Positions 28,734 to 48,401 of a DNA stretch of 64,000 nucleotides are shown piece after piece. The stretch covers positions 128,001 through 192,000 of the forward strand of contig CAVPSJ010000013.1 of NCBI GenBank assembly GCA_963708295.1. Direction: 5' to 3'. Position 1 is the first letter of the stretch, and every line of letters starts with the position of its first letter. A model generated the notes under the pieces. It was not told the DNA's origin and searched no databases. It was given only the letters and a program-made list of their open reading frames with translations. The position numbers and the translations under genes were made by a program. The DNA comes from an uncultured delta proteobacterium (lineage in GTDB: Bacteria > Desulfobacterota > BSN033 > UBA1163).

Positions 28734-29603
28734 TCATTCTGTTTCAGAGGGTTTGATCGGGCCCAGGGTCGTTTTAACGTTTTCCAATGATAACTCCAAT
28801 ATGCCGAGATGCTCATAAACCACCTCAACCCCTTGCCTGATTTTTACGCCGGTTGGGATTCTAGGAGTTTTTTTCAGGAGAAATTCCTCGGAAGTCATCC
28901 AGACTTCGAGCTGCCTCATCTTCTCACGAATCTCCGGGTTCAAGGAAGCGGGGGTGGTCTTTCCCACCCTTTTTTCAAATTTTTCTTTTAGGACGGCGAC
29001 CACTTCCTCCCGAGAGGGGATCCTTCCTAATTCTCTCTTCATCGTGGTCAAATTTTCCTCCATTGTTCGATAGACCTTCTCTCTGAATTTTTCATCAGGG
29101 GCTCTCAGGATTCTGCTCATCGCCTCATAATTAAAATCGAGGAGGATCCCTCCGACAAAGACCATGCAATCACCAATATTCCCCCCGCCTTCCCCGGCGA
29201 TCTTTCTACCTCCTTTGGTAAGAATGTCATTGACCACTCGAAATTCGGCCTCAATTCCGAAGGCTCCATAAGTTTCCACCGGGGCCTGTGAGAACCAGGG
29301 GTAAATCTCGTCGATCGCCCTGGGAAATCTTAGGTTATCTTTTTTCCAGATGAGCTGATAGAAAATTTGATTTTCGTCCAGGTAGGTGGTTCCTCCTCCC
29401 ACCTCTCTTCTCATAAAGGGAATTCCGGCTTCCCTACAATATTTGACATCCACCTCCTGTGGGGCGTCCTGGAAATATCCGATGCTCACCAGAGGAATTT
29501 TAGGGGAGACAAGGACGAGGGCCTCGATGCCCATCCGGGCGAGGGCATGAAAGATGAGCATGGATTGCTGGCCAGGGAGCTTCCCCAGATCGAATAGGTA
29601 CAT
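28734..29603 (-). CDS. lplA: Lipoate--protein ligase (LplA / sLpl type), C-terminal domain shortened
   Basis: Motifs 'VSIGYFQ', 'RREVGGGTTYLD' and 'VNDI...RKIAG'. Confidence 0.85.
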   Translation of the reverse strand: MYLFDLGKLPGQQSMLIFHALARMGIEALVLVSPKIPLVSIGYFQDAPQEVDVKYCREAGIPFMRREVGGGTTYLDENQIFYQLIWKKDNLRFPRAIDEIYPWFSQAPVETYGAFGIEAEFRVVNDILTKGGRKIAGEGGGNIGDCMVFVGGILLDFNYEAMSRILRAPDEKFREKVYRTMEENLTTMKRELGRIPSREEVVAVLKEKFEKRVGKTTPASLNPEIREKMRQLEVWMTSEEFLLKKTPRIPTGVKIRQGVEVVYEHLGILELSLENVKTTLGPIKPSETE

Positions 29604-29725
29604 ATCTTCCTCGCTTTCTCCGGTATAGCGACCGCCGTCAATGTGTTAACATGTTCCCGAGAATTTTTCAAAACGAAAAAAGAAAAGAAGAAAAGAAAAG
29701 AAGAAAGAAAAGGGAAGTGTTCCTC

Positions 29726-30565
29726 TTATTTAAGCTTTTTGCGGTCGGAGATGACAGTCATGGAAGAGGTGAAGATATGGAGAAGTTTGCTATGGGGAAT
29801 ATAGATAATCCATATGAGGCTGGGAACGACATGGAAGTACCAGAGGAAGTCGGCATTGATTTTCACATCTCTGAGGAATTGGGATATAAAGTAACCCCCA
29901 AAGGAAATCCAGTTATTGGCGCTGGCAGGTGTGAAGTTAGCCAGGTAATTATGTGCCTCGACGACTTCATGATGTGCGATGCGGTAACCCTCAATAAAGA
30001 AACCGGAAAGTTCCAAGAAAAGGAGGAAGAGCAATGTGGTCACATCCTCTTCTTCTGTCCGGAGCTGATCCGGGCGAATCGCAAAGCGGCGAACAATGGC
30101 CATGAGGCAGCCCACCAAAATAAGGAAGCTGAAGAATTCGAGGAAGAAATCGAGAAAAGGACGGATTGCACCGGTCTCAAAGACATGGGCGAAAGAAAGG
30201 AATGGTATGCGGTGACTCAGTTCCACGAGATACCCTGTGGTAAACCCCTTGATCATATCGACGACGAAGGTGGCGATGAATCCAAACACCAGTAGCGTAT
30301 GAGCGAGCCAGCGATAGAAGGATTGGCCGAAAAGTTTTCGATGGAAGATGACCTCTGTGATAAAGATTTTTACGTACCATCCCGGCCTCATCCAAAATTC
30401 CTTCCAGCCTCTCCGGATATAAATCTTGAGTTTCTCCCATTTGGTGGCCTTCTCTGCCCCTTCGAGGCCTCCTTCCAGCCAGATGCTGACATGGAGACCC
30501 ATCCCCCAGACGAAGAAAATCATCGTTGGGAAGAACATGACGTAGAAGATCAGGTGTTTGTCCAT
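29726..30565 (-). CDS. NarI/HdrE/DsrM-like membrane b-type cytochrome subunit
   Basis: About 5-6 TM helices with His-containing motifs 'RWLAHTL', 'WYFHVV' and 'PHSKLLHIF'. Adjacent to an HdrD-like gene. Confidence 0.8.
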   Translation of the reverse strand: MDKHLIFYVMFFPTMIFFVWGMGLHVSIWLEGGLEGAEKATKWEKLKIYIRRGWKEFWMRPGWYVKIFITEVIFHRKLFGQSFYRWLAHTLLVFGFIATFVVDMIKGFTTGYLVELSHRIPFLSFAHVFETGAIRPFLDFFLEFFSFLILVGCLMAIVRRFAIRPDQLRTEEEDVTTLLFLLFLELSGFFIEGYRIAHHEVVEAHNYLANFTPASANNWISFGGYFISQFLRDVKINADFLWYFHVVPSLIWIIYIPHSKLLHIFTSSMTVISDRKKLK

Positions 30566-30574
30566 AAAGGTTTT

Positions 30575-30964
30575 TCCGCCACAGAGGCACAGAGATCACG
30601 GAGGATTTAGTTTTTTATCCAATCGGGACATACCGATTGGATAAAAAGCCCATTTCTCAGGCTCTAATCCGCCACAAGGCGGCTGAGGCTTTTCCATTTG
30701 CCGTCGTCTCCCGGCAAATGGAAAAAACACCATTCCTCTGTATTACTGACGTGAAGAATTTTGAAATTTTATTAAGCAAAAACTTTTTCCTAACACTTTC
30801 CCCTCCCCCTTCGACGGGGGAGGGTGAGGGTGGGGGTGGACAAAATAGAAACCTTTGGTCCCCCCTCCCCATCATCCCCTCCCACGAAGGGGAGGGGAAA
30901 AAACTTTAGAAAGTTTTGTTTGGTTGCGGCTATGCTGCGCTGTGCCCTCTGTATCTCTGTGGTG
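30575..30964. repeat. Nested intergenic palindromic elements
   Basis: Outer arms cacagaggcacagag.. / ..ctctgtatctctgtggtg enclose a CCCTCCCC/GGGGAGGG double hairpin at about 30798-30898. Confidence 0.6.
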
Positions 30965-30974
30965 AGACCCGAAT

Positions 30975-32159
30975 TCATTTCATATTCCTCAGCACGAACT
31001 CCGTGATGTCCATGGCGCTGATGGGAATCTCTTTTCTTCGTGCCGTGGTTAAGATGGTCCGGACGCATTGCTGACAGGCTGTAATGACCGTATCCGCCCC
31101 CGTCGCCTGGATCTGGTTGATCTTCTCTTGGGCTAAGGCAGCTGAAAGTTCCGGGTCCACCATTTCCAGATTGCCCCCTCCACCACAGCATTTGCACTGT
31201 TCCCTGTTGTTTTCCATCTCAGTTAATTCCACACCGGGAATGGAGCGGAGAATCTCTCTCGGGGCTTCATAAACCCCGCTTGCCCTTCCCAAATCGCACG
31301 GATCATGGTAAGTCACTTTTATCTTCTTTTCCTTGAAAAGGATTTTTCCTTCGTCAATCAGTCTCTTGATAAATTGGGTGGAGTGGAAGATATCGACGTC
31401 GGTCTTGTATTCCTCCATCCAGGTATGGTAGCAGGAGGGACAAGCGAAGACCACTCTTTTCACGCCCTTTTCCTTCACCATCTCCAGATTATGCTCGATT
31501 AATACCTCTGCTTCCTTTTTCATCCCCGCGCCGATCAGGGGGAACCCGCAGCACCACTCCTCTCCACCCAGGAGCGTGAAATCCACTTTTGTTTTATTGA
31601 GGATTTCAACGAAGGCTAAGGGAATCTTCTGTACCAAGGGGAAGAAGGAGGCCACGCACCCCACAAAAAAAGCAGTCTCGGCCTTCTCTTTCTGATATTG
31701 GTGGGCAGGGAGTTCCTCCAGGAACTCCAGCCACTCTACCCTTTCTTCGTTTTCATCTCCGGAGACATTATGGGCCTTCAGGACATTTGCCTTCAGTCGT
31801 TTCGCTGCTTCTGGAAAATGGCCCATCTCTACCAAGGTCTCCCGAAGTGCGGTCCAGAGATGTTTGGCATCGATGGAAACCGGACAGCTTACGCTGCACT
31901 CCCCGCAGAGGGTGCATCGATAGACCATCTCTGAGAATTTCTTCAGTTTTTCCTCATCCAGCTTCTTCGGGCCGAAAATCTTGGCCCAGAGTCCGTACTG
32001 GCTTCGGATAAAAGCCTTGAAGGCCTGAATTTTCCCTCGAGGATCGATCTCCTCTTCACCCCTTTGAGCATACACCGGGCAGTACTTGAGGCATTCGCCG
32101 CACCGGGTGCAAGCATCAATCTCGACCAATTGTTTCGGAGAGAGGGCTGAAAGTTTCAT
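30975..32159 (-). CDS. HdrD/GlpC-like Fe-S oxidoreductase (2x[4Fe-4S] + 2 CCG domains)
   Basis: CTRCGECLKYCP, CTLCGECSVSCP, FVGC, WCCG, CPSC, YHDPC, KCCGGGG and CQQC. Confidence 0.9.
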   Translation of the reverse strand: MKLSALSPKQLVEIDACTRCGECLKYCPVYAQRGEEEIDPRGKIQAFKAFIRSQYGLWAKIFGPKKLDEEKLKKFSEMVYRCTLCGECSVSCPVSIDAKHLWTALRETLVEMGHFPEAAKRLKANVLKAHNVSGDENEERVEWLEFLEELPAHQYQKEKAETAFFVGCVASFFPLVQKIPLAFVEILNKTKVDFTLLGGEEWCCGFPLIGAGMKKEAEVLIEHNLEMVKEKGVKRVVFACPSCYHTWMEEYKTDVDIFHSTQFIKRLIDEGKILFKEKKIKVTYHDPCDLGRASGVYEAPREILRSIPGVELTEMENNREQCKCCGGGGNLEMVDPELSAALAQEKINQIQATGADTVITACQQCVRTILTTARRKEIPISAMDITEFVLRNMK

Positions 32160-32244
32160 GGAAAAATGATCCTGATTACAGCGATTTTGAATTCGAGATT
32201 ACACCGATTGACCCGCACCTGACAACACGAACCTTAGAGGGTCT

Positions 32245-32352
32245 GTCATTCCGGGCTTGACTAAGCCTGCCCCGTGCTTGACACGGGGGAATCCAGTCTT
32301 TTCCTGGATTCCTGCTGGAGTTTACCCCGTTGAAGAACGGGGCAGGAATGAC
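32245..32352. repeat. REP-like palindrome (GTCATTCC...GGAATGAC)
   Basis: Terminal tgtcattcc / ggaatgac with internal hairpins. Related short copies 'tgtcat(c/g)ctgaactcgtttcag(g/c)atct' occur at about 45456 and 60464. Confidence 0.6.
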
Positions 32353-32370
32353 GTGGTGGAATCGATTTAT

Positions 32371-32793
32371 CTATTTCTTACCGTGCTCGGCTATTTCCGC
32401 TTTGAGCCATTCCTGGAGGGTAGCGGGATCGGTCATAAGGTTCTTGAGCTCATCCAGGTTATCGGGTTTGATTTTAAACATCCACCCTTTGCCGTAGCAT
32501 TCCTCGTTGATCAACTTCGCTTTCTTTTCTAATTCTTCGTTCACTGCCACCAACTCACCGCTTACGACTGCAAACACTTTTCCGAGCCACTTTCCTGACT
32601 CAACCTTAGTAAAATTCTTTCCCTGGATGAGCTTTTTCCCCTCGGGAGGAAGACCGACGTAGACAATGCTGCCCGCCATCTTCTGGGCATAATCAGTCAT
32701 TCCCATGACCACCTGATCCCCTTCCACGCGAGCCCAAAAATGATTCTTGTCATAATAAAGTCCTTCCGGAAATTCATATCCCTCGATATTCAT
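32371..32793 (-). CDS. gcvH: Glycine cleavage H-like lipoate-binding protein (LbpA type)
   Basis: GcvH-fold motifs 'LYY..HFW', 'GMTDYAQ' and 'YGKGW'. Lipoyl Lys lies in 'VESGKW'. No gcvP/gcvT in the window. Confidence 0.88.
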   Translation of the reverse strand: MNIEGYEFPEGLYYDKNHFWARVEGDQVVMGMTDYAQKMAGSIVYVGLPPEGKKLIQGKNFTKVESGKWLGKVFAVVSGELVAVNEELEKKAKLINEECYGKGWMFKIKPDNLDELKNLMTDPATLQEWLKAEIAEHGKK

Positions 32794-32817
32794 TCTCGCA
32801 TCCCCTCCTCAATAAGA

Positions 32818-32962
32818 ATTGGAATACTGGAGAATTGGAGTAGTGGAGTAATGGCCTTAAATGGAATAATAACCCATCTCAAAACACCAAGAACCTTTGA
32901 CTATCTGACAAGTATTTCTTGTTTTTTTCCTGACCCAACACTCCATTACTCCATCACTCCAT
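32818..32962. repeat. 8-nt periodic inverted repeat (TGGAGTAN / NTACTCCA)
   Basis: tggagaat tggagtag tggagtaa ... cactccat tactccat cactccat; same family as 48402-48479. Confidence 0.7.
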
Positions 32963-32971
32963 GCTATTTGG

Positions 32972-34078
32972 CTATGCTGCTTCCTTTTTGCTTCGCTCCT
33001 GGTAAAGCTGGGCGATGAACTCCGTAATGTTGTAGATTTCAATCTTCTGTTTCCGAAGTTTGGCATTTCTGAAATTGTGCAGGCAGGAGGGACATTCCGT
33101 GAGCAAAATCTCAGCTCCTGTCTCTTCGATGATTTGGCTTAGCCGATTTCTTGAAATTTCAATGGAGTCCTCAGGAAAAGACCCGCGGAGTCCACCCCCC
33201 GAGCCACAGCACATGGCATTCTCCCTGGTCCGTCTCGGCTCCACAAAATTGGGCGCAATCTTTCGGATGATCTCCCTCGGCTCATCATAGATCCCGGCAT
33301 GGCGGCCGAGATCGCAAGGATCGTGGTAAGTCACCTTTTTCTTCGTTTTTACTCCGAAGTCCAAGTCTTTCAGGAATTGAGTGATATGTTTGACCTCCAG
33401 CCCTAAGTTTTTGTAGGAAGGATGTTCTTTGAACACCCGGTAACAGTAGGGGCAGGTCGTGATCAGTGTTTTGGCGCCGGTTGTCTGAAGCTCTCGAAGA
33501 TTTTGCCGGGCCAAATCCTCCTTGATTTTGTAACCCACATCCTCCATCACACCACTGCAGCAGACCTCATCAATCATGGTAAAGTCAACCTTTAAAAGAT
33601 CAAGAAGCCGGATGGATTCCTGAACGCTTTCTTCTTCCCGGTAAGCTCCCACACAGCCCACAAAAAGGACGTAACGGGCACTTGCCTTTTTGTGTCCCCA
33701 GTCATGCCGTTCTTCTTCCCCGTAGATATTTCCATATTTCTCAACAACCTCGCCCATTTTCTTGAAGAGGTTGTCAAAACCCATCTCCACCATATCTTTT
33801 CGTGCTGCCTTGATGACCTCCTGGGGATCTGCGCCGGAGGGGCAGCTTACCGTGCAGTTCATGCAGGTGGTGCAGCGAAGGAGGGCCTGAGCCACCCCCT
33901 CGGTCACGGGGAGTTTTCCCTCCATGACCTCTTTCATGAGGATCATTTTCCCGCGGGCATTCGTAATGGGCCTTTTGGTTAAGTCGAAGATAGGGCAGAC
34001 TGCCCGGCAAAAGCCGCAGCGGGAACACTGGGTTATTGCCTTGCGCCGTTTTTCATCGAACTGAAGTTGGCTGGTCAT
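32972..34078 (-). CDS. HdrD/GlcF-like Fe-S oxidoreductase (2x[4Fe-4S] + 2 CCG domains)
   Basis: CSRCGFCRAVCP, CTTCMNCTVSCP, FVGC, VCCSG, CPYC, YHDPC, MCCGSGG and CPSC. Confidence 0.9.
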   Translation of the reverse strand: MTSQLQFDEKRRKAITQCSRCGFCRAVCPIFDLTKRPITNARGKMILMKEVMEGKLPVTEGVAQALLRCTTCMNCTVSCPSGADPQEVIKAARKDMVEMGFDNLFKKMGEVVEKYGNIYGEEERHDWGHKKASARYVLFVGCVGAYREEESVQESIRLLDLLKVDFTMIDEVCCSGVMEDVGYKIKEDLARQNLRELQTTGAKTLITTCPYCYRVFKEHPSYKNLGLEVKHITQFLKDLDFGVKTKKKVTYHDPCDLGRHAGIYDEPREIIRKIAPNFVEPRRTRENAMCCGSGGGLRGSFPEDSIEISRNRLSQIIEETGAEILLTECPSCLHNFRNAKLRKQKIEIYNITEFIAQLYQERSKKEAA

Positions 34079-34168
34079 TATATCACCTGATCGGACCCCC
34101 TCACCTCACTCTCTCCCCTGGGGGAGAGGGAAAGGGGCTTTCTGCCATCAGCTATCAGCTATTGGCCA

Positions 34169-35542
34169 TTAGCCATCCAGAGCTCTTTTCCCTGGATTCA
34201 TGATGTTATTCGGGTCTAATGTTCTTTTGATCTGCCTCATTACTGCCATCTCTACTGAATCATGTTCCAATGTCATATAGTTTGCCTTTGAGAGGCCGAT
34301 GCCGTGCTCACCCGACAGGGTTCCTTTGAGAGAGATGGCGAGACGAAAGATTTCTTCCTCGACTTTTTCCGTCCTCTCCACTTGCTCCGGGTCGGATTCA
34401 TCGTAAAGGATTTGTGGATGAAGGTTTCCGTCACCGGCATGGCCATAGGTCGCTACCACCAGACCGTGTCTTTGAGCAATCGCTTGGATTCCCACGAGGA
34501 GATCGGGTATTCTGGAGATCGGAACGGTGACATCGTCCAGGACAAAGCTCTTGCTGACCCGGGCAAGGGTTGCATAGGCGGATTTACGGGCTTTCCAGAG
34601 GCCCAGGCGTTCTTTTTCGTCTTTTGCTGTCTTGACCAGGCTGGGGTGATTCTGATTGAGTATGCGGAGAACCACTTCCATCTGGGCCTCTACTTCCTCC
34701 CAAGTATAGCCATCCGTCTCCGTCAAAATCATAGCTTCGGCCTCAGGGAGATCGAGATCCGTATTCTCTTTGATGGATTTGAGGGTTACTTTATCCAATA
34801 TTTCCATCACGCTTGGCAAAACACCACTGGTCATGGTTTGGAAGATCGCTTTTCCCGCGTCCTCCAATTTGGCATAAGTGGCCATCGCAGTCATGGCATG
34901 ACGGGGGAGGGGATTGATTTTTAACGTGACCTCCGTGATCACCCCCAGCGTCCCCTCCGCCCCGATAAAGAGCTTGGCCAGATCATAACCGGAAACGCAT
35001 TTCATGGTGTAGGAGCCCGTGTGCATTACCTCTCCCGTTGGTAAAACGACTTGAAGGCCGAGGACATAGTCCCGGGTGGTGCCGTATTTGGCTCCCTTGA
35101 TTCCACCGGCGTTGGTGGCCACGTTTCCTCCAATGGTGGCAACGGTGCTGCTCGCCGGGTCTGGAGGGAAAGTAAAACCATGTTTTGCCAATTGTCGATT
35201 GAGATCGTCGCAGACCACACCGGCTTGAACACGGGCGTAACGATTCTCAATGCTTATTTCAAGAATTCGGTTCATCCTTGAGAGGTCGACGATGATTCCA
35301 CCCTGGACGGAAACGGCTCCTCCGCTGAGACTTGTCCCTGCTCCTCGAGGAACAACGGGAATTTTATATTGATTGGCAAACTTGACAATTTCAGCGATCT
35401 GTTCGGTTGACTCAGGCCAGACTGCCGCATCGGGCCGATGGACATTCATCGATGCGTCATAACTATAGGGAACCAACTCCTCCAGTTGATCGGTGAAATG
35501 ATCAGCCCCAACGATCTCAATCAGTTTTTCTTTTGTTGACAT
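34169..35542 (-). CDS. glcD: FAD-linked 2-hydroxyacid dehydrogenase, GlcD / D-lactate dehydrogenase family
   Basis: Motifs PRGAGTSLSGG, FPPDPAS, GGNVATNAGG, GHAGDGNLH and SGEHGIG. Confidence 0.88.
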   Translation of the reverse strand: MSTKEKLIEIVGADHFTDQLEELVPYSYDASMNVHRPDAAVWPESTEQIAEIVKFANQYKIPVVPRGAGTSLSGGAVSVQGGIIVDLSRMNRILEISIENRYARVQAGVVCDDLNRQLAKHGFTFPPDPASSTVATIGGNVATNAGGIKGAKYGTTRDYVLGLQVVLPTGEVMHTGSYTMKCVSGYDLAKLFIGAEGTLGVITEVTLKINPLPRHAMTAMATYAKLEDAGKAIFQTMTSGVLPSVMEILDKVTLKSIKENTDLDLPEAEAMILTETDGYTWEEVEAQMEVVLRILNQNHPSLVKTAKDEKERLGLWKARKSAYATLARVSKSFVLDDVTVPISRIPDLLVGIQAIAQRHGLVVATYGHAGDGNLHPQILYDESDPEQVERTEKVEEEIFRLAISLKGTLSGEHGIGLSKANYMTLEHDSVEMAVMRQIKRTLDPNNIMNPGKRALDG

Positions 35543-35620
35543 TCCTTACGGACTCCTTTTTCATGCTTCACATTTTAGTATAACTCCCTGGTAAAGATCC
35601 CTTCAATGATTTCCTCATTT

Positions 35621-36319
35621 TTATTCTTTTGGATGCTTAGAGGCCTTTACCTCCAGCTCGACGAAATTCAGGTGTTCGAGAATCCTTTCTCTGGCTTTTT
35701 CAGGAGAATGGTTCTTGATCGCCATGAATATTCGATGATGGTGGCCGAGCAGTTTCTTCACTTTCGATCGGCCCTTGAAAACCCTTGCCACAGATTCCCT
35801 GAGGAGATCATAGATGGTGGACATCACATGGGTTTGGATGGTGTTATGAGTTGCCTGGGCAATCCCTAGATGAAAGTCGGCATCTTGCTTCTCCCAGGAT
35901 CGTCCCTGCTCAAAGGCTTTTTTCATCGCCTCAAGGATGTTCTCCAATCGGTTGATGTCTTCTTCGGTGGCCCTCTGAGCAGCAAGAAAAGCACCCCAGG
36001 CCTCTAAAGCTTTTCTGACCTCGATCAGGTCGAAGATCTTCTGGGTATCCGCCTTGATGAGCAAAAAGAGAGGATTCTGGACACTGTCTGAAGCAACAGA
36101 TTTGATGACGGTCCTTCTGCCTTTTACCTCCAAAAAGCCCATGGCGACCAGGGAATTGAGAGCTTCTCTGAGAGAAGGGCGGCTGACGCCAAATTCTTTG
36201 ATCAGTTCCCGTTCCGGGGGCAACCTGTCCCCCGGCTTCAGTCTCCCTTCACTGATGAGCGTTTTGATCTGATTCGCAATTTCGTCAGAGACCCGAGTAT
36301 GTTTGATGGATTTGAACAT
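35621..36319 (-). CDS. FadR/GntR family transcriptional regulator (LldR/GlcC/PdhR-like)
   Basis: wHTH 'PGDRLPPEREL..FGVSRPSLREAL' and FCD domain 'DADFH..HH.I..H'. Start could be 36319 or 36331. Confidence 0.92.
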   Translation of the reverse strand: MFKSIKHTRVSDEIANQIKTLISEGRLKPGDRLPPERELIKEFGVSRPSLREALNSLVAMGFLEVKGRRTVIKSVASDSVQNPLFLLIKADTQKIFDLIEVRKALEAWGAFLAAQRATEEDINRLENILEAMKKAFEQGRSWEKQDADFHLGIAQATHNTIQTHVMSTIYDLLRESVARVFKGRSKVKKLLGHHHRIFMAIKNHSPEKARERILEHLNFVELEVKASKHPKE

Positions 36320-36335
36320 GGCCGGACTCATTGTC

Positions 36336-36377
36336 AAATGGTCTTACCTTTTTAAATTAAACCCTCTTTATTGTCAA
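36336..36377 (-). promoter_or_regulatory. Sigma70 promoter with an overlapping FadR-type operator (autoregulation)
   Basis: Minus strand TTGACA-N17-TAAAAA. Operator AAATGGTCTTACCTTTT at 36336-36352 resembles the TGGTnnnACCA FadR-subfamily palindrome. Confidence 0.6.
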
Positions 36378-37285: not shown

Positions 37286-38253
37286 TTAAAGCGGATTAAG
37301 GAGGTTTGGAGGATTGCCGCTGGTAAAGGCAGCGACCAGGTTTTGGGCCGCTAACATCGCCATCCTGAGACGTGTCGCCCGGGACGAACTGGCAATGTGG
37401 GGCGCCAGAACGACATTCTTCAATTCAAGAAACCCCGGGTTCAGTTTCGGCTCATTCTCGAACACATCAAGACCTGCACCGGCAATGGTTCCCGAATGGA
37501 GCGCAGCGATCAACGCTGCCGTCGTCTACCACGCCGCCACGGGAGGCGTTGATCAGAATCGCCGTGGGCTTCATCCGTTTAAGTTCCGGTTTCCCCGATG
37601 AGGTGGTGGGTGGCAGAGGAATAGGGGACATGGATGGTCACAATGTCAGCCCGCGCCAGCAACTCATCCTTGTTCACGAAACTTGCCCGGCATGCCTGTT
37701 CAATCTCTGAGGCAGCTCGCCTGACATCGTGATAGATCACCTTCATCTCAAAGCCGATGGCACGCCGCGCCACCACCTGGCCGATGCGCCCCAGGCCGAA
37801 GATGCCCAGCGTCGCGTGGTGGACATCAAGGCCGAGAAACTGCTTCAGCTTCCAGCCGTCCCACTCGCCTTTGCGTACGTAGGCCTCTGCTTCAGTCAAT
37901 CGCCGCGCTGTGGCAAGAATCAGCGCCCAGGTGAAATCTCCGGTGGTATCGTCCAGCACCCCAGGGGTGTTGGTGGCCATGACCTTTGCTTTGGTGCATG
38001 CTTCAAGGTCAATGTTATTATAACCGACGGCGATATTGCACACTGCTTTTAAGTTCGGACACCGCGCTAATAAGGCGGTGTCAATTCTATCCGTCAGGGT
38101 GATCATGGCGCCCTGCTTGTCAGAGAGCTTCGTCGCCAGGGTTTCCGGATCCATCGGTATATCTGACTGATTCGATGTCACCTCAAAATATTGAGACAGA
38201 TATTCCAGAACCTCATCAAAAACTTCCCGGGTCACCAGTACTTTCGGTTTCAT
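37286..38253 (-). CDS. D-2-hydroxyacid dehydrogenase (glyoxylate/hydroxypyruvate reductase), split by two +1 frameshifts
   Basis: [15 protein letters not shown] and GLGRIG. Removing one G at about 37593 and one at about 37519 restores '[33 protein letters not shown]'. Confidence 0.85.
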
Positions 38254-38420
38254 GGTCTTATTCCCCCATGTCTATGATACAGGCATTCGCTGCCCCGATC
38301 ACGATTCCCTGGACTGCTCTCTTCTCACCAAGAAGAGAGCGGCGACGATAAAAAAACTCCCCGGAAGCCGCACGCAAAAAGCGAACAAGTATCCGGTCAT
38401 GATGCCGTCACTTCAGTGGT

Positions 38421-38615
38421 CTAATCAACCTTGGGAGCCTTTTTGACCCGGCGGTCTTTTGTAAGAATCTGCCCTTCAGCGAAGAGAAACACGACGCCGA
38501 TAAGACAGACAAAGCTGCCGGCTAACGCAAGGATAATTTGGACGAATGTCGGTGGTTCATAAATACTTATAAGACATAACACCGTAACTGCAACAATTAT
38601 GGTAGCGAGCTCCAC
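38421..38615 (-). CDS. Small hypothetical two-TM membrane protein
   Basis: 64-aa ORF with two hydrophobic segments; no family recognised. Confidence 0.4.
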   Translation of the reverse strand: MELATIIVAVTVLCLISIYEPPTFVQIILALAGSFVCLIGVVFLFAEGQILTKDRRVKKAPKVD

Positions 38616-38727
38616 CCAGCTTTTCCCACATATTTAACCTCCCTGCATACGTGATTCAGAAAATTGAGCTAATCTGCTCCGACGACGGGCGCGGAGCATT
38701 TGTTTCAACATCTTCAGTTTGCTCGGA

Positions 38728-38913
38728 TCAACCCTTAGCGGACGGATTATTATCCGCTGCTTTCCCGAAGCGCACGATGCCGTAAAGCATGAGACAGCCC
38801 ACGGCTATCACAAGACAAAAAATGACCATGGCATGCACGGGCAGTTTGGTGATCAACGACCACAGAATGAAATTACCAACGACGACGCCGGTCACTAACA
38901 AAAAATGTCGCAT
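38728..38913 (-). CDS. Small hypothetical two-TM membrane protein
   Basis: AGGAGG RBS, ATG start and two hydrophobic helices. Confidence 0.55.
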   Translation of the reverse strand: MRHFLLVTGVVVGNFILWSLITKLPVHAMVIFCLVIAVGCLMLYGIVRFGKAADNNPSAKG

Positions 38914-38999
38914 CTTTCTCCTCCTGATGTAGGTTTTCGTGAATCAGGCAATTACACCCCCGCTGGACGCTGAGATCCCGGCGCAGAAGCCTGCTGTCA

Positions 39000-40938
39000 T
39001 CACTTGTACACCAAGCCCGGCACCCACAGACCGATCTGCGGGAAGAGGTAGAGCAACAGTATCGCCAAACACTGGATCACCATGAACGGCAACATCCCGA
39101 TGAAGATCTGGTTGAGCGTCACATGGGGCGGCGCCACGCCCTTCAGGTAGAAGGCGGCCATCGCCACCGGCGGCGAGAGGAACGCCGTCTGGAGGTTCAG
39201 GGCCACCAGCAAACCGAAGAAGAGCGGATCGATCTTGAAGTGCGCCAGGAGCGGGATGAAGATCGGCATGAAGATGACGATGATCTCGGTCCATTCCAGC
39301 GGCCAGCCCAGAAGGAAGATGATCACCTGCGCCAGGAGCATGAACTGGGTCGGCGTCATGTCCATCGATTTCACCCACTCGTTGATAATCTCCTGACCGC
39401 CGAGGAGGGCGAAGGCCGCCGCGAAGATGCTCGAGCCGACGAAGAGCCAGCATACCATCGCCGAGGTCTTGGCGGTAAGGAAGACCGATTCCTTGACGAC
39501 GGTGAAATTGAGCTGTTTGTACGCGGCCGCCAGGACAAACCCCCCGAAGGACCCCATCGCCGCCGCCTCGGTCGGGGTCGCGAGCCCCACGACGATCGTC
39601 CCGAGGACCCCGAGGATGATCAGGGCCAGCGGGAAGAACGATCCGAGGAGCATCTTGAAGATCTCGAGACGTGCAAAGGTGAAGATCGCATAGAAGATGA
39701 CGATCCCCGCCGCGAAGACGCCGAAGGTGATCCAGAAGACCAGCGGGGCGGGATGGCGTCCGGGTGCGGCTGGTACCACGGGTGTCGCCGGCTTTACCTC
39801 GGCGGGCGGCTTTGGGGCCTCGGCCGGTGCGGCCGGGGCGACCTGCGCCGTCTGACCGGGTTCTGCCGGGGGTTCCTGCAAGCCACCCTCGGCTTGCGGT
39901 TCCTGGAGACTCCCCGTGTCGGTCGAGACTTCCGTGGGTCTCCGTCGACTCCATACCCATCGTCTGAGCGCCCGACGTATCCACAAGCGAAGGTGCCGTC
40001 GTCCAGAGGTAGACAATCAGAACGAGGAGAGAGGCCGCCACCAGGGGAAGTATGGCGATCACCAGGTGGGTGAGGAGCGTCTTCATCGGGACGTCGGCGT
40101 TCCGCTTCCCCTTGATCGCACCGATCAGCCCGACCATGACGTTGTTGGATTTCTTCGAGATCACCTCCGCGAACTTGGGCAGCTCGACGCGCTGCTCCTC
40201 CTCGGAGAGCGGCGGGGCGGTTTTCGGATTGAGCTTTGCGGAGATGATGATGTAGCCGAGATAGAGGCCGGTCAGCATGAAGCCGGGTAAAAACGCCCCG
40301 GCGTAAAGCTGGACGACCGAGACGCCCGCGGTCGCGCCGTAGAGGATCAAAAGGACCGAAGGCGGGATCAGGATGCCGAGGGTTCCCCCCGCGGTCACGA
40401 CCCCCGCCGAGAGGCGGGTGCTGTATCCGGCCTTGAGCATCGCCGGAAAGGCGAGAAGGCCCATGAGCGTCACGCACGCCCCGATGATGCCGGTGGCGGT
40501 GGCGAAGATCGCGCAGGTGATGACCGTCGCGACGGCGAGCGACCCGGGGATCCGGGAGGTCGCCAGGTGGAGACTCTTGAAGAGCCTGCCGATCAGGTTG
40601 GCCCGTTCGACGAGGTACCCCATGAAGACGAACAGCGGTATCGAGATCAGTACGTCGTTGTTCATGACGGCATAGGCCCGCTGCGACACCAGATCGAACG
40701 TGTGGGCCACCGCCGTATTCGGGTTTTGGCTGTAATAGGAGAAAAAGGCGAACATCGTTCCCATCCCCATGAGGGTGAAGGCGGTGGGAAAGCCGAGCAT
40801 GATCGCGATGACGATCATCGCGAGCATCAGGAGGCCCAGGTGACCGGTCGTCCACTGTGACAGCGGGGGCATCGCCCAGAACACACCGATCACCACCAGC
40901 GCCATGATCGATATTCCAAACCAGGCTTCTTTTCTCAT
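39000..40938 (-). CDS. dctM: TRAP transporter large permease, split by one +1 frameshift
   Basis: 'IPLFVFMG', 'GGTLGILIPPS', 'TPTEAAA' and 'NLQTAFLSPP'. Removing one base at about 39937 joins the two ORF halves. Confidence 0.88.
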
Positions 40939-41561
40939 TTGTCGCCCCCTTTTCCGTGCGTCACAATCTCATCGAGCTTCGCGATATCCTCGTCGGTGAC
41001 GTGCACCGTCGCCTTCAGCTTCTCGACGTCGACCTCCTCGACGTCCTGGATGCGCGAGGGCCACTTGCCGGCCTTGAGGCACAGGACACAGCGGACGATC
41101 TCGACGAAGCCCTGCACGAGGATGAACGCCCCGGCAATGGGGATGATCGTCTTGAAGTGGTAGAGCGGGGGACCGTCGGCGGTGATGCTCGAATGCTCGA
41201 AGATCCTCCAGGAGTCGCCGGCATAGTAGTAGCCGGCCCAGCAGAGGGCGGTCACCCCGGGGAGGAAGAAGAGGATGTAGAGCGTCAGGTCGAGGGCGGC
41301 CTGCACACGCGGCGGGAAGAAACCGTAGAGGACGTCGCCGCGGACCATGCCGTTCTTCGAGAGGGTGTAGGCGCCCGCCATCATGAACAGGATCCCGTAC
41401 ATCTGGAGCATGATATCGAAGGCCCAGGAGTGCGGTGCATCGACGGCGTAGCGGGCGTACACCTCGTAGGTGATCAGAAAGGTGAGCCCCACGATGAGCC
41501 AGGAAAACGCCTGGCCGGCAAACGTGCTGATCTTGTCAATGGTGAGCAGTAGTTTCTGCAT
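40935..41561 (-). CDS. dctQ: TRAP transporter small permease
   Basis: Four TM helices, 'YEVYARY' and 'MVRGDVLY'. Coupled to dctM (ATGA overlap). Confidence 0.88.
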   Translation of the reverse strand: MQKLLLTIDKISTFAGQAFSWLIVGLTFLITYEVYARYAVDAPHSWAFDIMLQMYGILFMMAGAYTLSKNGMVRGDVLYGFFPPRVQAALDLTLYILFFLPGVTALCWAGYYYAGDSWRIFEHSSITADGPPLYHFKTIIPIAGAFILVQGFVEIVRCVLCLKAGKWPSRIQDVEEVDVEKLKATVHVTDEDIAKLDEIVTHGKGGDK

Positions 41562-41581
41562 ATTCGATCCTTTTTAGAAAA

Positions 41582-41616
41582 CAGCCACCCGGACGCGGAC
41601 AGCGCCCGGATGGCTG
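41582..41616 (-). terminator. Stem-loop between dctP and dctQ
   Basis: CAGCCATCCGGGCGC-TGTCC-GCGTCCGGGTGGCTG followed by TTTC on the minus strand. Confidence 0.55.
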
Positions 41617-41638
41617 ATCGATCATGGTGTGAAACCTC

Positions 41639-42796
41639 TCAGCCTTTCTTCGCGGGCCGGAGCCTTCTTGGCGCCGAAATAATGGTTATAGGCCATTCGC
41701 CGGTTGACGTTGGTATCCATGTCCCAGGCCACCGTGCGCTTGGCGAACGCGATTTGCGATTCGATGATCTCCTTGAACAGTGGGTTATCCGCCGACTTCT
41801 TCGCCACGACCTGGTCATAGACTTCGAGCTCCCTTTTCAGGATCGCGTCCGGGGTCTTGTAGAACTTGACCTTGTCCTTCGGTCTGCAGCTCAGATGTAG
41901 TCCTTCGAGTAGCGGTCAATCGACTTCCAGGACATGTCGGCAGAGGCGGCCTCTACACCGTTTTCGATGATCGCCTTCAGCTTGGCGGGCAGGGCGTCGT
42001 ACTTGGGCTTGTTGAACAGAATCTCGAACTGCTCGGCGTTCTGGTGGAAGCTCTGCAGCATGCACACCTTGGAGACGTCGGCGAAGCCGAGCAGCCGGTC
42101 GGAGGAGGCGTTGTTGAACTCCGCCCCGTCGAGGAGGCCGCGGTCCATGGCCGGGACGATCTCGCCGCCGGGCAGCGCATTTACCGCCGCGCCCAAGGCG
42201 GTGTAGACGTCAACGGAGAGCCCCACGGTACGGAACTTCATACCCTTCATGTCCTCCAGCTTTGTGATCGGCTTTTTGAACCAGCCGAACGGCTGCGTAA
42301 ACATCGGCCCGTAGGGGAAAGAGACGACGTTGGCGCCGATGGACGCGTAGAGCTTCGCCAGCAGCTCCTTGCCGCCGCCGTACTTGTGCCAGGAGAGCAG
42401 CATGTTGGCGTCCATGCCGTAGCCGGGACCCGACCCCCACAGCGCCAGCGCGTTCTGCTTGCCGTAGTGGTAGACGATGACGCCGTGGGCGCCGTCGAGC
42501 GTTCCCTTGGAGACCGCGTCCAGCACGCCGAAGGCCGGCACCACGGCACCCGCCGGAAGCACTTCGATCTTCAGATCGCCGCCGGTCATGTCATTGATCT
42601 TCTTGGCGAAGTCAAGGGCGAACTCGTGGAAAATGTCCTTGGTCGGCCAGGTGGACTGCCAGCGCATCGAAATCGGCCCCTGCGCCTTGGCGATCATCGG
42701 GAAGCCCAGCGCCGCGGCCCCGGCGGTCACTGCGGCAGCGCCTGCGAGGAACTTGCGTCGTGAAACCTGTTTCTCTTTCGTCTTCTCTTGTTTCAT
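41639..42796 (-). CDS. dctP: TRAP substrate-binding protein (TakP / alpha-keto-acid type, Tat signal), frameshifted near the 3' end
   Basis: SRRKFL Tat motif, 'WQSTWP', 'LPAGAVVPAF' and 'LPGGEIVPA'. Single-base insertions at about 41893, 41881 and 41655 interrupt the C-terminus 'ELQTKDKVKFYKTPD..NPLFKEI'. Confidence 0.85.
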
Positions 42797-43604: not shown

Positions 43605-44867
43605 ATGGCTCGACTATTCGAATACCAGGGAAAACAGTTGCTTAAAGCATTCAAAGTCCCCATTCCCCAGGGTGAGGTAGCAACGACTCCCCAGGAAGCC
43701 AAGAAGATCGCCGAGAAGATTGGCAAGCCCGTTGCCATCAAATCACAGGTCTGGGCAGGAGGAAGAGGAAAGGCAGGGGGTATTAAATTCGCTGAACACG
43801 CCATCGATGCCGAGATTGTCGCGAACCAGATCCTGGGATCGGAGATTAAAAAACTGAAGGTAGAAAAGGTACTCGTCGAGGAGAAACTGGACATCGACAA
43901 GGAATATTATATCGGTGTCATCGTTGATTCTTCGAGGGAAGTCCGCGCCCCCATCATTATGTTCAGCACGGAAGGGGGAATGGATATCGAATCGGTCCCT
44001 TCGGAAAAGATCGCTACGATGACGGTAGACGTCCTCCGGGGGGTTCGGCTCTATGATGCCCTTAACCTTGCCCTCAAACTGAAGGTCCCGACGGCACATC
44101 TTCCGGGTGTGGCCCAGGCGATCTCAGGCCTGTTCAAAACGTTCAAGGAATATAACTGCAGGACCGCCGAGATCAATCCCCTGATCGTCACCAAGGACGG
44201 GAAAGTCCTTGCCGGAGATTGCCGGATAGCGATTGACGACTCTTCCGTCTTTCGTCATCCCGAGCTCGGCATCGAAGTTGCCCGGGAGGCTGCGACTCCG
44301 CCCACGGAGCTCGATAAGATCGCCTGGCAGATCGAAGAAGGAGACCTCCGGGGGACCTGCTACATCGCTCAGATGGTGACAGAGATAAAGGGGCTCAACT
44401 ACGTAGGTTACCACGGGATGGGTGGTGGTGGGGCCATTCTGGGGGTGGATGGCTTGAACCGCGTGGGGCTTAAGATTCCCAACTACGCCGACACGAGCGG
44501 GAACCCGACGGCGGCCAAGGTCTATCGGGCAGCGAAGGTCATCTTTTCGCAACCCGGCATCGAGGGCTATATGCTCGGCGGATTCATGTACGCAAACCAG
44601 GAACAGTGGCACCATGCCCATGGCGTCGTGAAGGCCCTCCGGGAGGAACTCCCCAAGAGACCTGGATTTCCCTGCGTGCTCCTGATCTGTGGCAACAAGG
44701 AGAAGGAGGCCCTTGAGATTTTACGAGAGGGGACGAAAGATCTGCCCGGACGGATCGAGATCTACGGAGGGGACAAGGTATATGAGACCCAGTTTTTGGC
44801 CGAGAGGATGAAGGCTCTCATTTTAGAATACCGGAAGGAAAGAGGGATAACCGAAGAGAATTCCTAA
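43605..44867 (+). CDS. sucC: SucC-like ADP-forming acyl-CoA synthetase beta subunit (divergent; malate/citrate thiokinase type)
   Basis: 'LFEYQGK', 'KSQVWAGGRGKAGG', 'EGGMDIE' and 'EINPL'. Substrate loops are divergent (GMGGGG in place of NGAGL). Confidence 0.82.
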   Translation: MARLFEYQGKQLLKAFKVPIPQGEVATTPQEAKKIAEKIGKPVAIKSQVWAGGRGKAGGIKFAEHAIDAEIVANQILGSEIKKLKVEKVLVEEKLDIDKEYYIGVIVDSSREVRAPIIMFSTEGGMDIESVPSEKIATMTVDVLRGVRLYDALNLALKLKVPTAHLPGVAQAISGLFKTFKEYNCRTAEINPLIVTKDGKVLAGDCRIAIDDSSVFRHPELGIEVAREAATPPTELDKIAWQIEEGDLRGTCYIAQMVTEIKGLNYVGYHGMGGGGAILGVDGLNRVGLKIPNYADTSGNPTAAKVYRAAKVIFSQPGIEGYMLGGFMYANQEQWHHAHGVVKALREELPKRPGFPCVLLICGNKEKEALEILREGTKDLPGRIEIYGGDKVYETQFLAERMKALILEYRKERGITEENS

Positions 44868-45020
44868 ATCCGAAGCACGAAATCCGAAATTCGAAGCAAT
44901 TTCGAATGATCAAAATTCAAAACAAATGAATGAAAAAAGTTGCGGAGATTAGGTCATTCGGATTTTGAATTTGTTTCGGATTGGTCCGAGACGGACGCTC
45001 CGCCCGATATTCGAATTTTA
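44865..45020. repeat. 7-nt periodic imperfect inverted repeat (AAATCCG family)
   Basis: aaatccg aagcacg aaatccg aaattcg ... cggattt tgaattt gtttcgg .. cgatatt cgaattt. Confidence 0.7.
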
Positions 45021-45094
45021 GAAGCTTTACCGCTTCATGTACAATTTGATACGCAAGCGATTGATATTGTCCAGGGTCAGGGAGGCGTAAAATT

Positions 45095-45379
45095 ATGCAT
45101 TTTGAAGAACAAACGATCAAAGTGAATATCGATGAGAGCAAATGCGTCGGCTGTAAAACCCACGCCTGTGCGGCGGGGTGCAAGCTCTTCGACCGGGGAA
45201 TCCTGGTCATCAAAGACGGTAAACCGGCCCTTGCAGGAGACGCGGCCTTCGCCCGTCGGGTAGGGACGGAGTGCCTCGCATGCGAGTATGAATGCTGGTT
45301 CAGGGGAAACAAGGCGATTACGATCGAAGCGCCGGTTCCCGGGTTGGATGAATATCGAAAAAAACATGGCGTGGTCTGA
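45095..45379 (+). CDS. Small ferredoxin-like Fe-S protein
   Basis: CVGC...CAAGC and CLACEYEC motifs; GGAGG RBS. Confidence 0.75.
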   Translation: MHFEEQTIKVNIDESKCVGCKTHACAAGCKLFDRGILVIKDGKPALAGDAAFARRVGTECLACEYECWFRGNKAITIEAPVPGLDEYRKKHGVV

Positions 45380-45527
45380 TTTCGGATTGTAAATGGCAGA
45401 TTGCGGATTGAAAAAATCTGAAACCTTACCTAAAGAAATTGAAATTCGATGAACCTGTCATCCTGAACTCGTTTCAGGATCTCAAAAGATAATTCTCAGA
45501 TCTGAAATCAGATTTGGAGGGGACGAA

Positions 45528-46424
45528 ATGGCTATTTTGCTGAAGAAAGATACGAAGGTCTTAGTTCAGGGGATCACAGGGAGGGAAGGCTCGGCGCGGG
45601 CTGCATTCATGAAAGGTTATGGGACCAACGTGGTGGCCGGCGTCACACCGGGGCGCGGTGGAGAAGAGGTAGGCGGGACTCCTGTTTACAATACCATACA
45701 AGAAGCTGTGAAGGCCCATGGTAACTTCGATTTGAGCGTCACCTTCATCCCCGGGCCAAGCCTCAAGGACGCGGTTCTCGAAGCCCTGGATGCAGATATC
45801 AAGTTTCTTGTTATGCCGGTGGAAAGGGTTCCTCTCTACGACATCCTGGAGATGATGGCCCACGGAAAACAGAAGGGGGCGCGCTTGCTGGGTCCGGGAT
45901 CCATCGGGATCATCAGCCCCGGAATTGCGGCAGCAGGCTGGCTGGGAGGATCTCCGGACTTTGCAAAAAGGGTCTTTGTCCCCGGACACGTCGGGGTGAT
46001 TTCCAGGAGCGGGGGACAGTCTGCAACGGTTCCGTACACGATTAAGGAAGCGGGCCTTGGGATGACCACCGTCGTTCATGTTGGAACAGAGCCCGTGGTG
46101 GGGCAGTCTTTCGCAGACATCTTACCCCTCTTCCAGGCTGACGAGGAAACCCATGCCGTTGCCATCTTCGGTGAGATTGGTGGAACGAATGAGGAAGAGG
46201 CAGCGGAGGCGGTGAGGCGTAAAGAGTTCACCAAGCCTCTGGTGATTTATGTTGCCGGAGCATGGGCTCCGGAAGGAATGCGGTTTTCCCATGCCAGCAG
46301 TATCGTCGAGCGAGGCAAAGGGTCCGCGAAGGATAAGGTGAAGAACCTGAAGGATGCAGGGATCCATGTGGTGGACCGACCCGATGAAATCGCGCCCACC
46401 CTGAAACGGCTGCTACGCGTTTAA
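45528..46424 (+). CDS. sucD: SucD-like acyl-CoA synthetase alpha subunit
   Basis: VQGITG, GVTPGRGG, SRSGG, GEIGG..EE and the phospho-His in 'RFSHAS'. Confidence 0.85.
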   Translation: MAILLKKDTKVLVQGITGREGSARAAFMKGYGTNVVAGVTPGRGGEEVGGTPVYNTIQEAVKAHGNFDLSVTFIPGPSLKDAVLEALDADIKFLVMPVERVPLYDILEMMAHGKQKGARLLGPGSIGIISPGIAAAGWLGGSPDFAKRVFVPGHVGVISRSGGQSATVPYTIKEAGLGMTTVVHVGTEPVVGQSFADILPLFQADEETHAVAIFGEIGGTNEEEAAEAVRRKEFTKPLVIYVAGAWAPEGMRFSHASSIVERGKGSAKDKVKNLKDAGIHVVDRPDEIAPTLKRLLRV

Positions 46425-46472
46425 TTGACCCAATAACTCAATAACTCATTAACTCAATATAGGAGGTGCATT

Positions 46473-48399: not shown

Positions 48400-48401
48400 C
48401 A

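Follow-up and report, generated by a model that had tools for sequence, protein, structure and literature searches.

A seven-gene operon of an uncultured delta proteobacterium encodes a lipoyl carrier protein of a distinct clade together with HdrD-like iron-sulfur proteins, and we propose that it operates as a lipoyl dithiol/disulfide shuttle between a D-lactate or other 2-hydroxyacid dehydrogenase and a quinone-reducing membrane module, a reading to which we give an even chance of being correct. The operon occupies the minus strand at 28734-36337 of a 64,000-nucleotide stretch (positions 128,001 to 192,000 of contig CAVPSJ010000013.1, here called C13, in GenBank assembly GCA_963708295.1), which we refer to as the window. 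Its consecutive open reading frames (ORFs), assigned with Pfam and NCBIfam, specify a regulator, a GlcD-family dehydrogenase, a first CCG-domain protein (CCG1), a GcvH-like carrier (the H-protein), a second CCG-domain protein (CCG2), a NarI-like membrane protein and an LplA-type ligase, exactly the products named in an original prediction for this stretch.

Many CCG proteins resembling HdrB or HdrD are found in bacteria that lack coenzymes M and B, as parts of lactate dehydrogenases, of complexes of the Tmc/Hmc type and of HdrABC-like modules. With the exception of DsrC and of LbpA, for which it is proposed, we know of no thiol/disulfide substrate for these bacterial proteins. A lipoyl H-protein that is marked by a motif and almost always encoded beside CCG proteins represents a concrete and directly testable candidate. 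If the proposal is right, lipoate would serve as an electron or substrate carrier in anaerobic respiration and syntrophy as well, in addition to its roles in 2-oxoacid and glycine metabolism and in sulfur oxidation, the entry of lactate electrons into the membrane of these organisms would be explained, and the widespread annotation 'glycine cleavage system protein H' would need correction.

The H-protein departs from canonical GcvH in the immediate surroundings of its lysine. Among 80 loci fetched through the H-protein, the motif ESGKW[LV]G[KR] is invariant in 44, and likewise in the window protein (ESGKWLGK) and in a paralogue on contig C15 of the same genome; one further locus, L050, reads ETGKWMGK. 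The other 35 H-proteins, which derive from 34 fetched loci (including Asgard archaea, Verrucomicrobiota, Planctomycetota and Roseovarius) and from contig C17 of the same genome, carry ES[VM]KA[AS]SD or a close variant. In a maximum-likelihood tree the 48 motif rows, L050 included, split from the 35 canonical rows with a support of 100/100. The lipoyl lysine is retained in every member of the clade, Lys68 of the window protein aligning with the lipoyl lysine of GcvH, and the median net charge of the stretch up to 25 residues away from it is +1 for the clade versus -10 for canonical GcvH. This switch is of the same kind as the loss of an acidic surface that is reported, in bioRxiv 10.64898/2026.10.01.755906, to steer LbpA to its own ligase. 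Among the best 150 matches to the clade profile in 1.84 billion cluster representatives, 40 display E[ST]GKW and a few AKW, MKW or IKW, hence the clade is moderately diverse.

The overall fold is nonetheless that of GcvH, as judged from the GCV_H match and from the best relatives in the PDB, which are GcvH structures, whereas the score with the gcvH equivalog model TIGR00527, 104.8 bits, stays under its cut-off of 115.85. The protein does exceed the cut-off of the NCBIfam subfamily model NF002270 (135.5 bits versus 117), and annotation pipelines would thus call it GcvH. The genome contains five GCV_H matches, one of which, on C17, is a gcvH placed directly before gcvPA and accompanied by lplA and lipA, with gcvT 23 kb away; this is the canonical glycine cleavage set. 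Genes for E2 and dihydrolipoyl dehydrogenase are found on C4, C14 and C20, with two dihydrolipoyl dehydrogenases above cut-off on C14, while C13 holds no gcvP, gcvT, E2 or dihydrolipoyl dehydrogenase. The absence of glycine cleavage and 2-oxoacid dehydrogenase genes alongside the operon, pointed out in the original prediction, therefore extends, for gcvP, gcvT, E2 and dihydrolipoyl dehydrogenase, to the entire contig, and the possibility it had raised, that the H-protein serves a canonical glycine cleavage system encoded elsewhere, is countered by the separate gcvH of the C17 set. Judged on these sequence features, the window protein is not the H-protein of glycine cleavage.

The gene neighborhood was assessed by profile searches within 7 kb of H in 46 loci with an E[ST]GKW H-protein. 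A CCG protein is present in 43 of these, mostly adjacent and frequently with overlapping start and stop codons, a NarI-like protein in 28, GlcD in 26 (at times as a GlcD::CCG fusion) and the ligase in 20, congruent with the earlier proposal of a dedicated lipoate ligase. None of these four neighbors was detected in the 34 canonical-H loci. The three loci without a CCG neighbor are L031, where a cytochrome::NarI gene is followed by the contig end, L025, a contig of 3 kb, and the ETGKW outlier L050. Thus, the association of H with CCG genes is far beyond chance, and the search for conserved synteny that the original prediction called for comes out in its favor.

The gene set is kept across Syntrophaceae, Desulfatiglandales, Desulfobacteraceae, Desulfarculia and some Actinomycetota, in several layouts. 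The full gene order of the window (layout I-a) recurs in Syntrophaceae and Desulfatiglandales. Desulfobacteraceae and others (layout I-b) instead possess a protein of 600-640 amino acids with an N-terminal multihaem cytochrome c fused to a C-terminal NarI-like domain, followed by H-CCG2, with or without a preceding GlcD-CCG1, and the ligase. In Desulfarculia (layout II), an HdrA-like protein with an MvhD/FlpD domain, HdrC-like and HdrB-like proteins, H and an 861-amino-acid GlcD::Fer4::CCG fusion are encoded together, with a TRAP transporter alongside and no membrane module nearby; the isolate Dethiosulfatarculus sandiegensis (L044) belongs here. Metagenome-assembled genomes of Actinomycetota show LarA-GlcD-CCG-H.

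A second system resides in the same genome on C15 (G000:C15:161986-173381, L086), where an ESGKW H-protein 54% identical to that of the window lies directly upstream of a TAT-type, Psr-like molybdopterin oxidoreductase, read as two ORFs of 562 and 226 amino acids. Next come genes for a 4Fe-4S protein, NrfD, a ferredoxin, a 609-amino-acid membrane::Fer4::CCG protein and a 941-amino-acid GlcD::Fer4::CCG protein, a set that fits a route from a hydroxyacid via the quinone pool to a periplasmic reductase.

The reverse question was addressed in a sample of 401 genomes of the phylum. A clade-level H match, counted by score (at least 117 bits) and not by motif, occurs in about 67 of them; CCG2 is matched at E <= 1e-90 in 42 genomes, and 31 of the 42 have this match no more than 3 kb from one to H. 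The original prediction was to count as refuted if homologous clusters generally lacked H and the ligase, which is not the case. The remaining CCG2 matches, without H, are mostly GlcF-like paralogues (47-54% identity, for instance window 51554-52519) or membrane fusions of 645-702 amino acids. In two genomes of the same family, G124 and G216, a GlcD-CCG1-CCG2 cluster is found, with an upstream GntR gene and a downstream ligase in G216 only, and an H-NarI pair stands at a second locus; the set is thus kept but split, H traveling with the membrane subunit.

Both CCG proteins are of the HdrD/DsrK/TmcB type, with two CxxCxxCxxxCP and two C...CC...CxxC motifs each. None of the 18 cysteines of CCG1 varies among the 21 sequences aligned, nor does any of the 18 core cysteines of CCG2 among 30, so that each protein retains two 4Fe-4S motifs and two complete CCG motifs. 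In HdrB, such CCG motifs bind the non-cubane clusters that reduce disulfides. With all equivalog models tried (DsrK, TmcB, HmcF, GlcF, GlpC, TfrB) the scores remain under cut-off; CCG2 scores 190 versus 385 bits for TfrB, 107 versus 400 for DsrK and 108 versus 735 for TmcB. The best PDB match of CCG2 is EtfD of M. smegmatis (9ojn; hmmsearch E 2.1e-55, Foldseek E 2.6e-19, TMq 0.79), with LutA and HdrB next.

The NarI-like protein is the sole clearly hydrophobic product of the operon, and neither GlcD nor CCG1 has a hydrophobic segment. It conforms to a cytochrome b of the NarI/HdrE/DsrM type, with a Pfam match above cut-off, five hydrophobic segments that would form helices, and conserved histidines as putative haem ligands, all 14 unfused homologues sharing His75, 89, 245, 258 and 263. 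Its profile retrieved no PDB sequence at E <= 1, and a low-confidence model of its fold (pLDDT 67) gave weak Foldseek matches, first to EtfD (E 7.5e-3) and then to NarI chains. The architecture and fold of EtfD are recovered, weakly for the membrane part, and divided over two genes, one for the NarI-like membrane domain and one for Fer4 plus CCG, and the relatives of CCG2 and NarI point to a split module of the EtfD/HdrDE/DsrMK type. No Etf protein appears among the six genes beside H or among the six scanned neighbors of a fused CCG2 paralogue on C11, the Etf families not having been searched by profile. Had this 675-amino-acid C11 paralogue been encoded with etfAB, CCG2-NarI would have been a clear paralogue of EMO (ETF:(methyl)menaquinone oxidoreductase), but there is no etfAB beside it.

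The original prediction had further suggested modeling H with the CCG proteins. A complex of CCG2 and H, both supplied as alignments, was predicted with a score of 0.62 (individual runs 0.62, 0.62 and 0.57), while the best of three controls reached 0.00. This score is attained by 58 of 80 solved complexes and by 2 of 110 mismatched pairs, a rough calibration only, since own alignments were used here. The three runs share at least 92% of their contacts, with a partner pLDDT of at least 88. On the H side, the modelled interface comprises residues 42, 44-47, 49-50, 53, 62-65, 67-68 (Gly67 and Lys68), 70 and 92-93, and on the CCG2 side residues 133, 145-146, 172-175, 336, 370-371, 374-375 and 377, the CCG2 stretches 172-175 and 370-377 following directly after Cys168 of the first CCG motif and Cys362/Cys365 of the last CxxC, respectively. 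The model thereby places Lys68 against CCG2, a result that expresses model confidence and not a measurement. We know of no solved complex of the GcvH-HdrD type, for which reason memory of structures is unlikely to explain the score.

The ligase has the LplA catalytic domain, with the catalytic lysine, Lys134, invariant in 15 of 15 sequences and lipoate-protein ligases as its PDB relatives. It is divergent, being 29-31% identical to the other LplA homologues of the genome and scoring 93.6 bits with TIGR00545, whose cut-off is 280. In layout I-b the ligase is longer (about 530-547 amino acids in L029, L040 and L043), and that of L029 combines the LplA-B catalytic domain with a DUF116 domain.

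How the products may cooperate is deduced from sequence throughout, as regards electron flow, lipoylation and substrate alike. The ligase would lipoylate Lys68 of the H-protein, and GlcD-CCG1 would reduce the lipoyl disulfide with the two electrons taken from the hydroxyacid. The dihydrolipoyl arm would then dock on CCG2 and be reoxidized by it, and the haems of the NarI-like subunit would relay the electrons to menaquinone. Accordingly, CCG2 and NarI would be a module whose cytoplasmic substrate is the H-protein instead of ETF, the CoM-S-S-CoB heterodisulfide or DsrC, and under other conditions the direction of the shuttle could reverse.

For the substrate, our best guess, again from gene content, is D-lactate or a related D-2-hydroxyacid. 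Genes for LarA-type lactate racemase occur in 11 of the 46 loci, in all layouts, and often directly upstream of GlcD. A GntR regulator precedes GlcD in 12 of the 46, and the regulator of the window has its best NCBIfam similarities to LldR (174 bits), PdhR (166 bits) and GlcC, all under cut-off. The TRAP transporter and NAD-dependent 2-hydroxyacid dehydrogenase genes upstream in the window (see below) also speak for a substrate of this kind. The dehydrogenase itself misses the GlcD equivalog (TIGR00387, 501 bits versus a cut-off of 567.9), and the operon contains no GlcE partner. Glycolate is a possible substrate as well, but a separate GlcD/GlcE/GlcF-like set (48427-52519), accompanied by malyl-CoA-lyase-like and thiokinase-like genes, is situated 12 kb away on the other strand.

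Several points weigh against the shuttle. The potential of the lactate/pyruvate couple is about -0.19 V. That of lipoamide, given as -0.29 V in PMC6067878, is roughly 100 mV more negative, so that the GlcD-CCG1 step would run uphill and depend on the pull of quinone reduction. The donor of EtfD, the closest relative of CCG2, is a flavoprotein and not a thiol, so the CCG domains need not perform disulfide chemistry here. Clusters of cytochrome::NarI and CCG2, Tmc-like in kind, exist without an adjacent H (G117:C54 and G150:C6), and an H-protein at the ESGKW level was not found in G150, a genome 85% complete. A natural fusion from a library of representatives (P0001, 1391 amino acids) unites three H-like domains devoid of the lipoyl lysine with GlcD, Fer4 and two CCG domains, which implies that H-like domains can work with these enzymes free of lipoate. 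The window ligase lacks a complete C-terminal domain, two in-frame pieces of about 35 and 31 amino acids being missing relative to relatives of 350-398 amino acids; the shortening may be genuine or due to the assembly, and a genome of the same genus, G246, encodes a full ligase of 355 amino acids. Finally, the tree was computed from whole sequences but has 141 columns, and the two groups were set by motif beforehand and their neighbors counted afterwards. Aggregated, the shuttle envisaged in the original prediction gains from the conserved gene set, the separate clade, the CCG2 contact model, LarA and the likeness to EtfD, and loses from the missing cysteines of LbpA (see below) and the uphill transfer from lactate to the lipoyl group.

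Four other explanations were weighed. The H-protein could be a non-redox subunit with a structural, assembly or regulatory task, docked on the CCG proteins, while electrons pass directly from GlcD-CCG1 to CCG2-NarI in the manner of ETF and EtfD; we consider this unlikely, albeit the least so of the four. Lysine-less H-like domains, fused in P0001 to GlcD-Fer4-CCG and in P0134 (571 amino acids, same library) to GAF and a histidine kinase, are in line with such a task, as are EtfD being the best structural relative of CCG2 and the CCG2 clusters that lack H. It is at odds with the lipoyl lysine and flanking motif being invariant in 48 clade proteins of the loci and the own genome, with the recurrence of E[ST]GKW in 40 of the best 150 cluster representatives, with a ligase that accompanies H in 20 of 46 loci and is still present in the H-less cluster of G216, and with the position of Lys68 in the modelled CCG2 interface.

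Next in order, and likewise improbable, is a role of H as electron outlet or inlet of the CCG enzymes to NAD(H) via a dihydrolipoyl dehydrogenase (Lpd) encoded elsewhere, with the NarI module as a parallel route. The two dihydrolipoyl dehydrogenases on C14 would be available for it, type II loci combine H, HdrA/C/B-like proteins and GlcD::CCG with no membrane module nearby, and a lipoyl-to-Lpd route is what the LbpA model in PMC6067878 proposes. Neither the window contig nor the recurrent neighbor families of the 46 loci include an Lpd gene, however, and NarI-like proteins accompany H in 28 of the 46 loci, to the point of forming the two-gene H-NarI pair of G124 and G216.

Quite unlikely, and less probable again, is that H is a carrier of sulfane sulfur, bound as a persulfide to its dihydrolipoyl arm and delivered to the CCG active sites or collected from them, as in one LbpA model of the sHdr pathway, in which case the operon would belong to sulfur metabolism. 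The genome does encode dsrAB and dsrC, and its second H paralogue stands beside the Psr/Phs-like molybdoenzyme with NrfD. Against this, there is no DsrC/TusE (PF04358) match on the window contig, in a search that did not extend to DsrE, TusA and rhodanese, and no small protein of that size among the 22 most recurrent neighbor families of the 46 loci, seven of which beyond the core set are named by Pfam. The recurrent neighbors that do have names are GlcD, LarA, the GntR regulator and, in few loci, TRAP transporter genes, and the cysteine pair of LbpA is absent.

That H is an ordinary glycine-cleavage protein, or a lipoyl-relay protein like Bacillus GcvH, lying in the operon by chance is very improbable, its passing of NF002270 being outweighed by the canonical gcvH with gcvPA, lplA and lipA on C17, the failed gcvH equivalog cut-off, the separate clade with changed lysine motif and reversed local charge, and the CCG neighbors in 43 of 46 loci.

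Beyond the window operon, the variant loci suggest, on the strength of gene order, that the same carrier is plugged into multihaem-cytochrome::NarI (Tmc-like) and HdrA/C/B-like modules in related genomes. We tentatively put forward, while regarding it as more apt to fail than to hold, that in Thermodesulfobacteriota and some Actinomycetota the ESGKW lipoyl protein acts quite generally as the physiological 'heterodisulfide' for Hdr-type enzymes, serving HdrD-type lactate dehydrogenases, Tmc-like complexes and HdrA/C/B-type, possibly bifurcating, complexes. The carrier would then fill the role that CoM-S-S-CoB has in methanogens and DsrC in sulfite reduction, and the tryptophan and basic residues around the lysine would tune recognition by CCG proteins and perhaps the redox potential.

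The nearest known relative is the sHdr-LbpA system (Cao et al. 2018, PMC6067878), in which, as in the operon, a GcvH-like protein is encoded together with CCG Hdr-like proteins, and the lipoyl group is proposed to take electrons from an Hdr-like active site. The divergent ligase of the operon is a candidate counterpart of the one dedicated to LbpA, and the local charge suggests that here, too, neutral or basic residues have taken the place of acidic ones around the lysine. LbpA is defined in PMC6067878 by a pair of strictly conserved cysteines, one towards either terminus. The window protein has a single cysteine, Cys99, which is found in 62% of 61 aligned H-proteins, canonical ones included, and clade members have 0 to 2 cysteines, none of them conserved; on this point the resemblance to LbpA drawn in the original prediction is not supported. 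No shdr-type cluster lies beside the window H, the sulfur transferases DsrE, TusA and rhodanese not having been searched for. Other differences are the partners, which are HdrD-type proteins, GlcD and a NarI-type protein and not sHdrC1B1AHC2B2, the named recurrent neighbors, which are hydroxyacid genes (LarA, LldR-like regulator, TRAP), and the hosts, which are anaerobic Thermodesulfobacteriota. The Roseovarius loci L079-L084 were tried as LbpA and rejected; with the motif IESVKAASD, a canonical one, and no CCG neighbors, their H-proteins were treated as GcvH.

DsrC with DsrMK, and the related TmcABCD and HmcF, exemplify a small dithiol protein acting as substrate of an HdrD-like CCG subunit on a NarI-type cytochrome b. 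The logic proposed here, a dithiol carrier combined with CCG and NarI, is the same, and the multihaem cytochrome c::NarI proteins of the variant loci recall TmcA and TmcC with TmcB. In contrast to DsrC, the dithiol would be a lipoyl-lysine and not two protein cysteines, and a DsrC and dsr genes are encoded separately, at other places in the genome. Desulfovibrio, in its luo operon, pairs a GlcD-type D-lactate dehydrogenase with an HdrD-like partner, and E. coli has the glycolate oxidase GlcDEF; the pairing of a GlcD flavoenzyme with a CCG subunit for hydroxyacid oxidation is common to these and the window operon, whereas we know of no H-protein, second CCG protein, NarI subunit or ligase in either. 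Analogously, the GcvH-L/LplA2/SirTM/macrodomain operon of Staphylococcus and Streptococcus employs a GcvH paralogue and its own ligase outside glycine cleavage, and is not known to include CCG proteins. Sirtuin and macrodomain are in turn missing here, and the sequences are very distant (25.9 bits for the match to PDB 5a35).

The mycobacterial EtfD/EMO (PDB 9ojn), EMO being named an ETF:(methyl)menaquinone oxidoreductase in PMC11094781, likewise unites a membrane cytochrome b domain with two 4Fe-4S and two CCG motifs; it differs in that two polypeptides are used here and the conserved neighbor is a lipoyl protein. The idea of a lipoyl group as Hdr disulfide has precedents. In Culexarchaeia, where GcvH occurs in an Ehe hydrogenase-HdrBC-HdrA2B2C2 cluster, its lipoyl group was speculated to be the disulfide for HdrB in lieu of coenzymes M and B (PMC9723716), and for Pelobacter carbinolicus a 'lipoyl carrier protein LarG' was suggested, also speculatively, as a disulfide electron carrier (PMC3543383). 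The former case is archaeal and set in a hydrogenase context, with no mention of a distinct H clade, motif, ligase or link to lactate. A full-text literature search, within a scope of open journals and main texts and thus outside subscription journals and supplements, returned no description of the ESGKW clade, its motif or a GlcD/HdrD/NarI/LarA link. Within that scope the arrangement appears undescribed, as surmised in the original prediction, while the notion of a GcvH lipoyl group serving HdrB has speculative precedents. The genes and spacers of the operon are collected in Table 1.

Table 1. Genes and repeat-bearing spacers of the operon, positions counted from the first letter of the window.
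Feature	Position	Strand	Details
GntR/FCD (FadR-subfamily) transcription regulator	35621-36337	-	238 aa, TTG start; Pfam GntR 72 bits, FCD 100.6 bits
GlcD-family FAD-dependent dehydrogenase	34169-35542	-	FAD_binding_4 170 bits, FAD-oxidase_C 227 bits
CCG1, HdrD-like iron-sulfur protein	32972-34078	-	2 x CxxCxxCxxxCP + 2 x CCG; Pfam CCG 102.6 bits, Fer4_8
GcvH-like lipoyl carrier, ESGKW clade	32371-32793	-	GCV_H (PF01597) 130.6 bits; VESGKW = residues 64-69; putative lipoyl-lysine Lys68
H-CCG2 spacer with short dispersed repeat	32160-32370		211 bp; 21 further BLASTN hits in genome
CCG2, HdrD/EtfD-like iron-sulfur protein	30975-32159	-	two 4Fe-4S motifs + two CCG domains; Pfam CCG 120.8 bits; constant neighbor of H
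CCG2-NarI spacer with dispersed repeat	30566-30974	.	409 bp, G-rich inverted stretches; 12 further BLASTN hits in genome
NarI/HdrE/EtfD-type membrane protein, putative dihaem cytochrome b with quinone site	29726-30565	-	Nitrate_red_gam PF02665 28.9 bits, cut-off 22.9
Divergent LplA-type lipoate-protein ligase, shortened C-terminal domain	28734-29603	-	LplA-B_cat 114.7 bits

Position 36319, the end of the regulator in the original prediction, is an internal ATG, and the longer ORF from TTG reaches 36337. Contigs from three of four metagenome runs (X2, X3 and X4) skip 412-423 bases at the CCG2-NarI spacer, and one X2 contig skips 209 bases at the H-CCG2 spacer, where it should be considered that the contigs compared are short pieces of related populations that pile up on repeat-bearing spacers. 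In related loci the CCG2-NarI spacer measures about 80-100 bp. Promoter and terminator scans did not exceed shuffled sequence (5 versus 6.6 and 10 versus 12.2, respectively).

Elsewhere in the genome, a 457-amino-acid protein on C14 (G000:C14:200092-201465, L089:4092-5465) joins a 2Fe-2S domain and a 4Fe-4S dicluster domain to a divergent H-like domain. The gcvT match on C17 (G000:C17:408477-409236) and a dsrA match on C4 (G000:C4:967076-968203) contain one in-frame TGA each; sequencing error, pseudogene formation or codon recoding may account for it.

Upstream of the operon, the window contains genes for a universal stress protein, an NAD-dependent D-2-hydroxyacid dehydrogenase and a TRAP transporter. 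Within 37579-42796, on the minus strand, the TRAP genes DctP, DctQ and DctM are recognized, DctM being apparently split between two frames across a GC-rich stretch (38944-40938), and in the same interval the ORF of the NAD-dependent 2-hydroxyacid dehydrogenase stops early at 224 amino acids; the split and the short ORF may both be assembly frameshifts. Further on, a plus-strand module (43605-52519) encodes an ATP-grasp/CoA-ligase pair resembling malate/succinate thiokinase, an HpcH/malyl-CoA-lyase-like protein, a formyltransferase and GlcD, GlcE-like and GlcF-like proteins, with no H-protein, and has the appearance of a pathway for glycolate/glyoxylate. In five related loci, too, a thiokinase-like pair is encoded close to the H operon.

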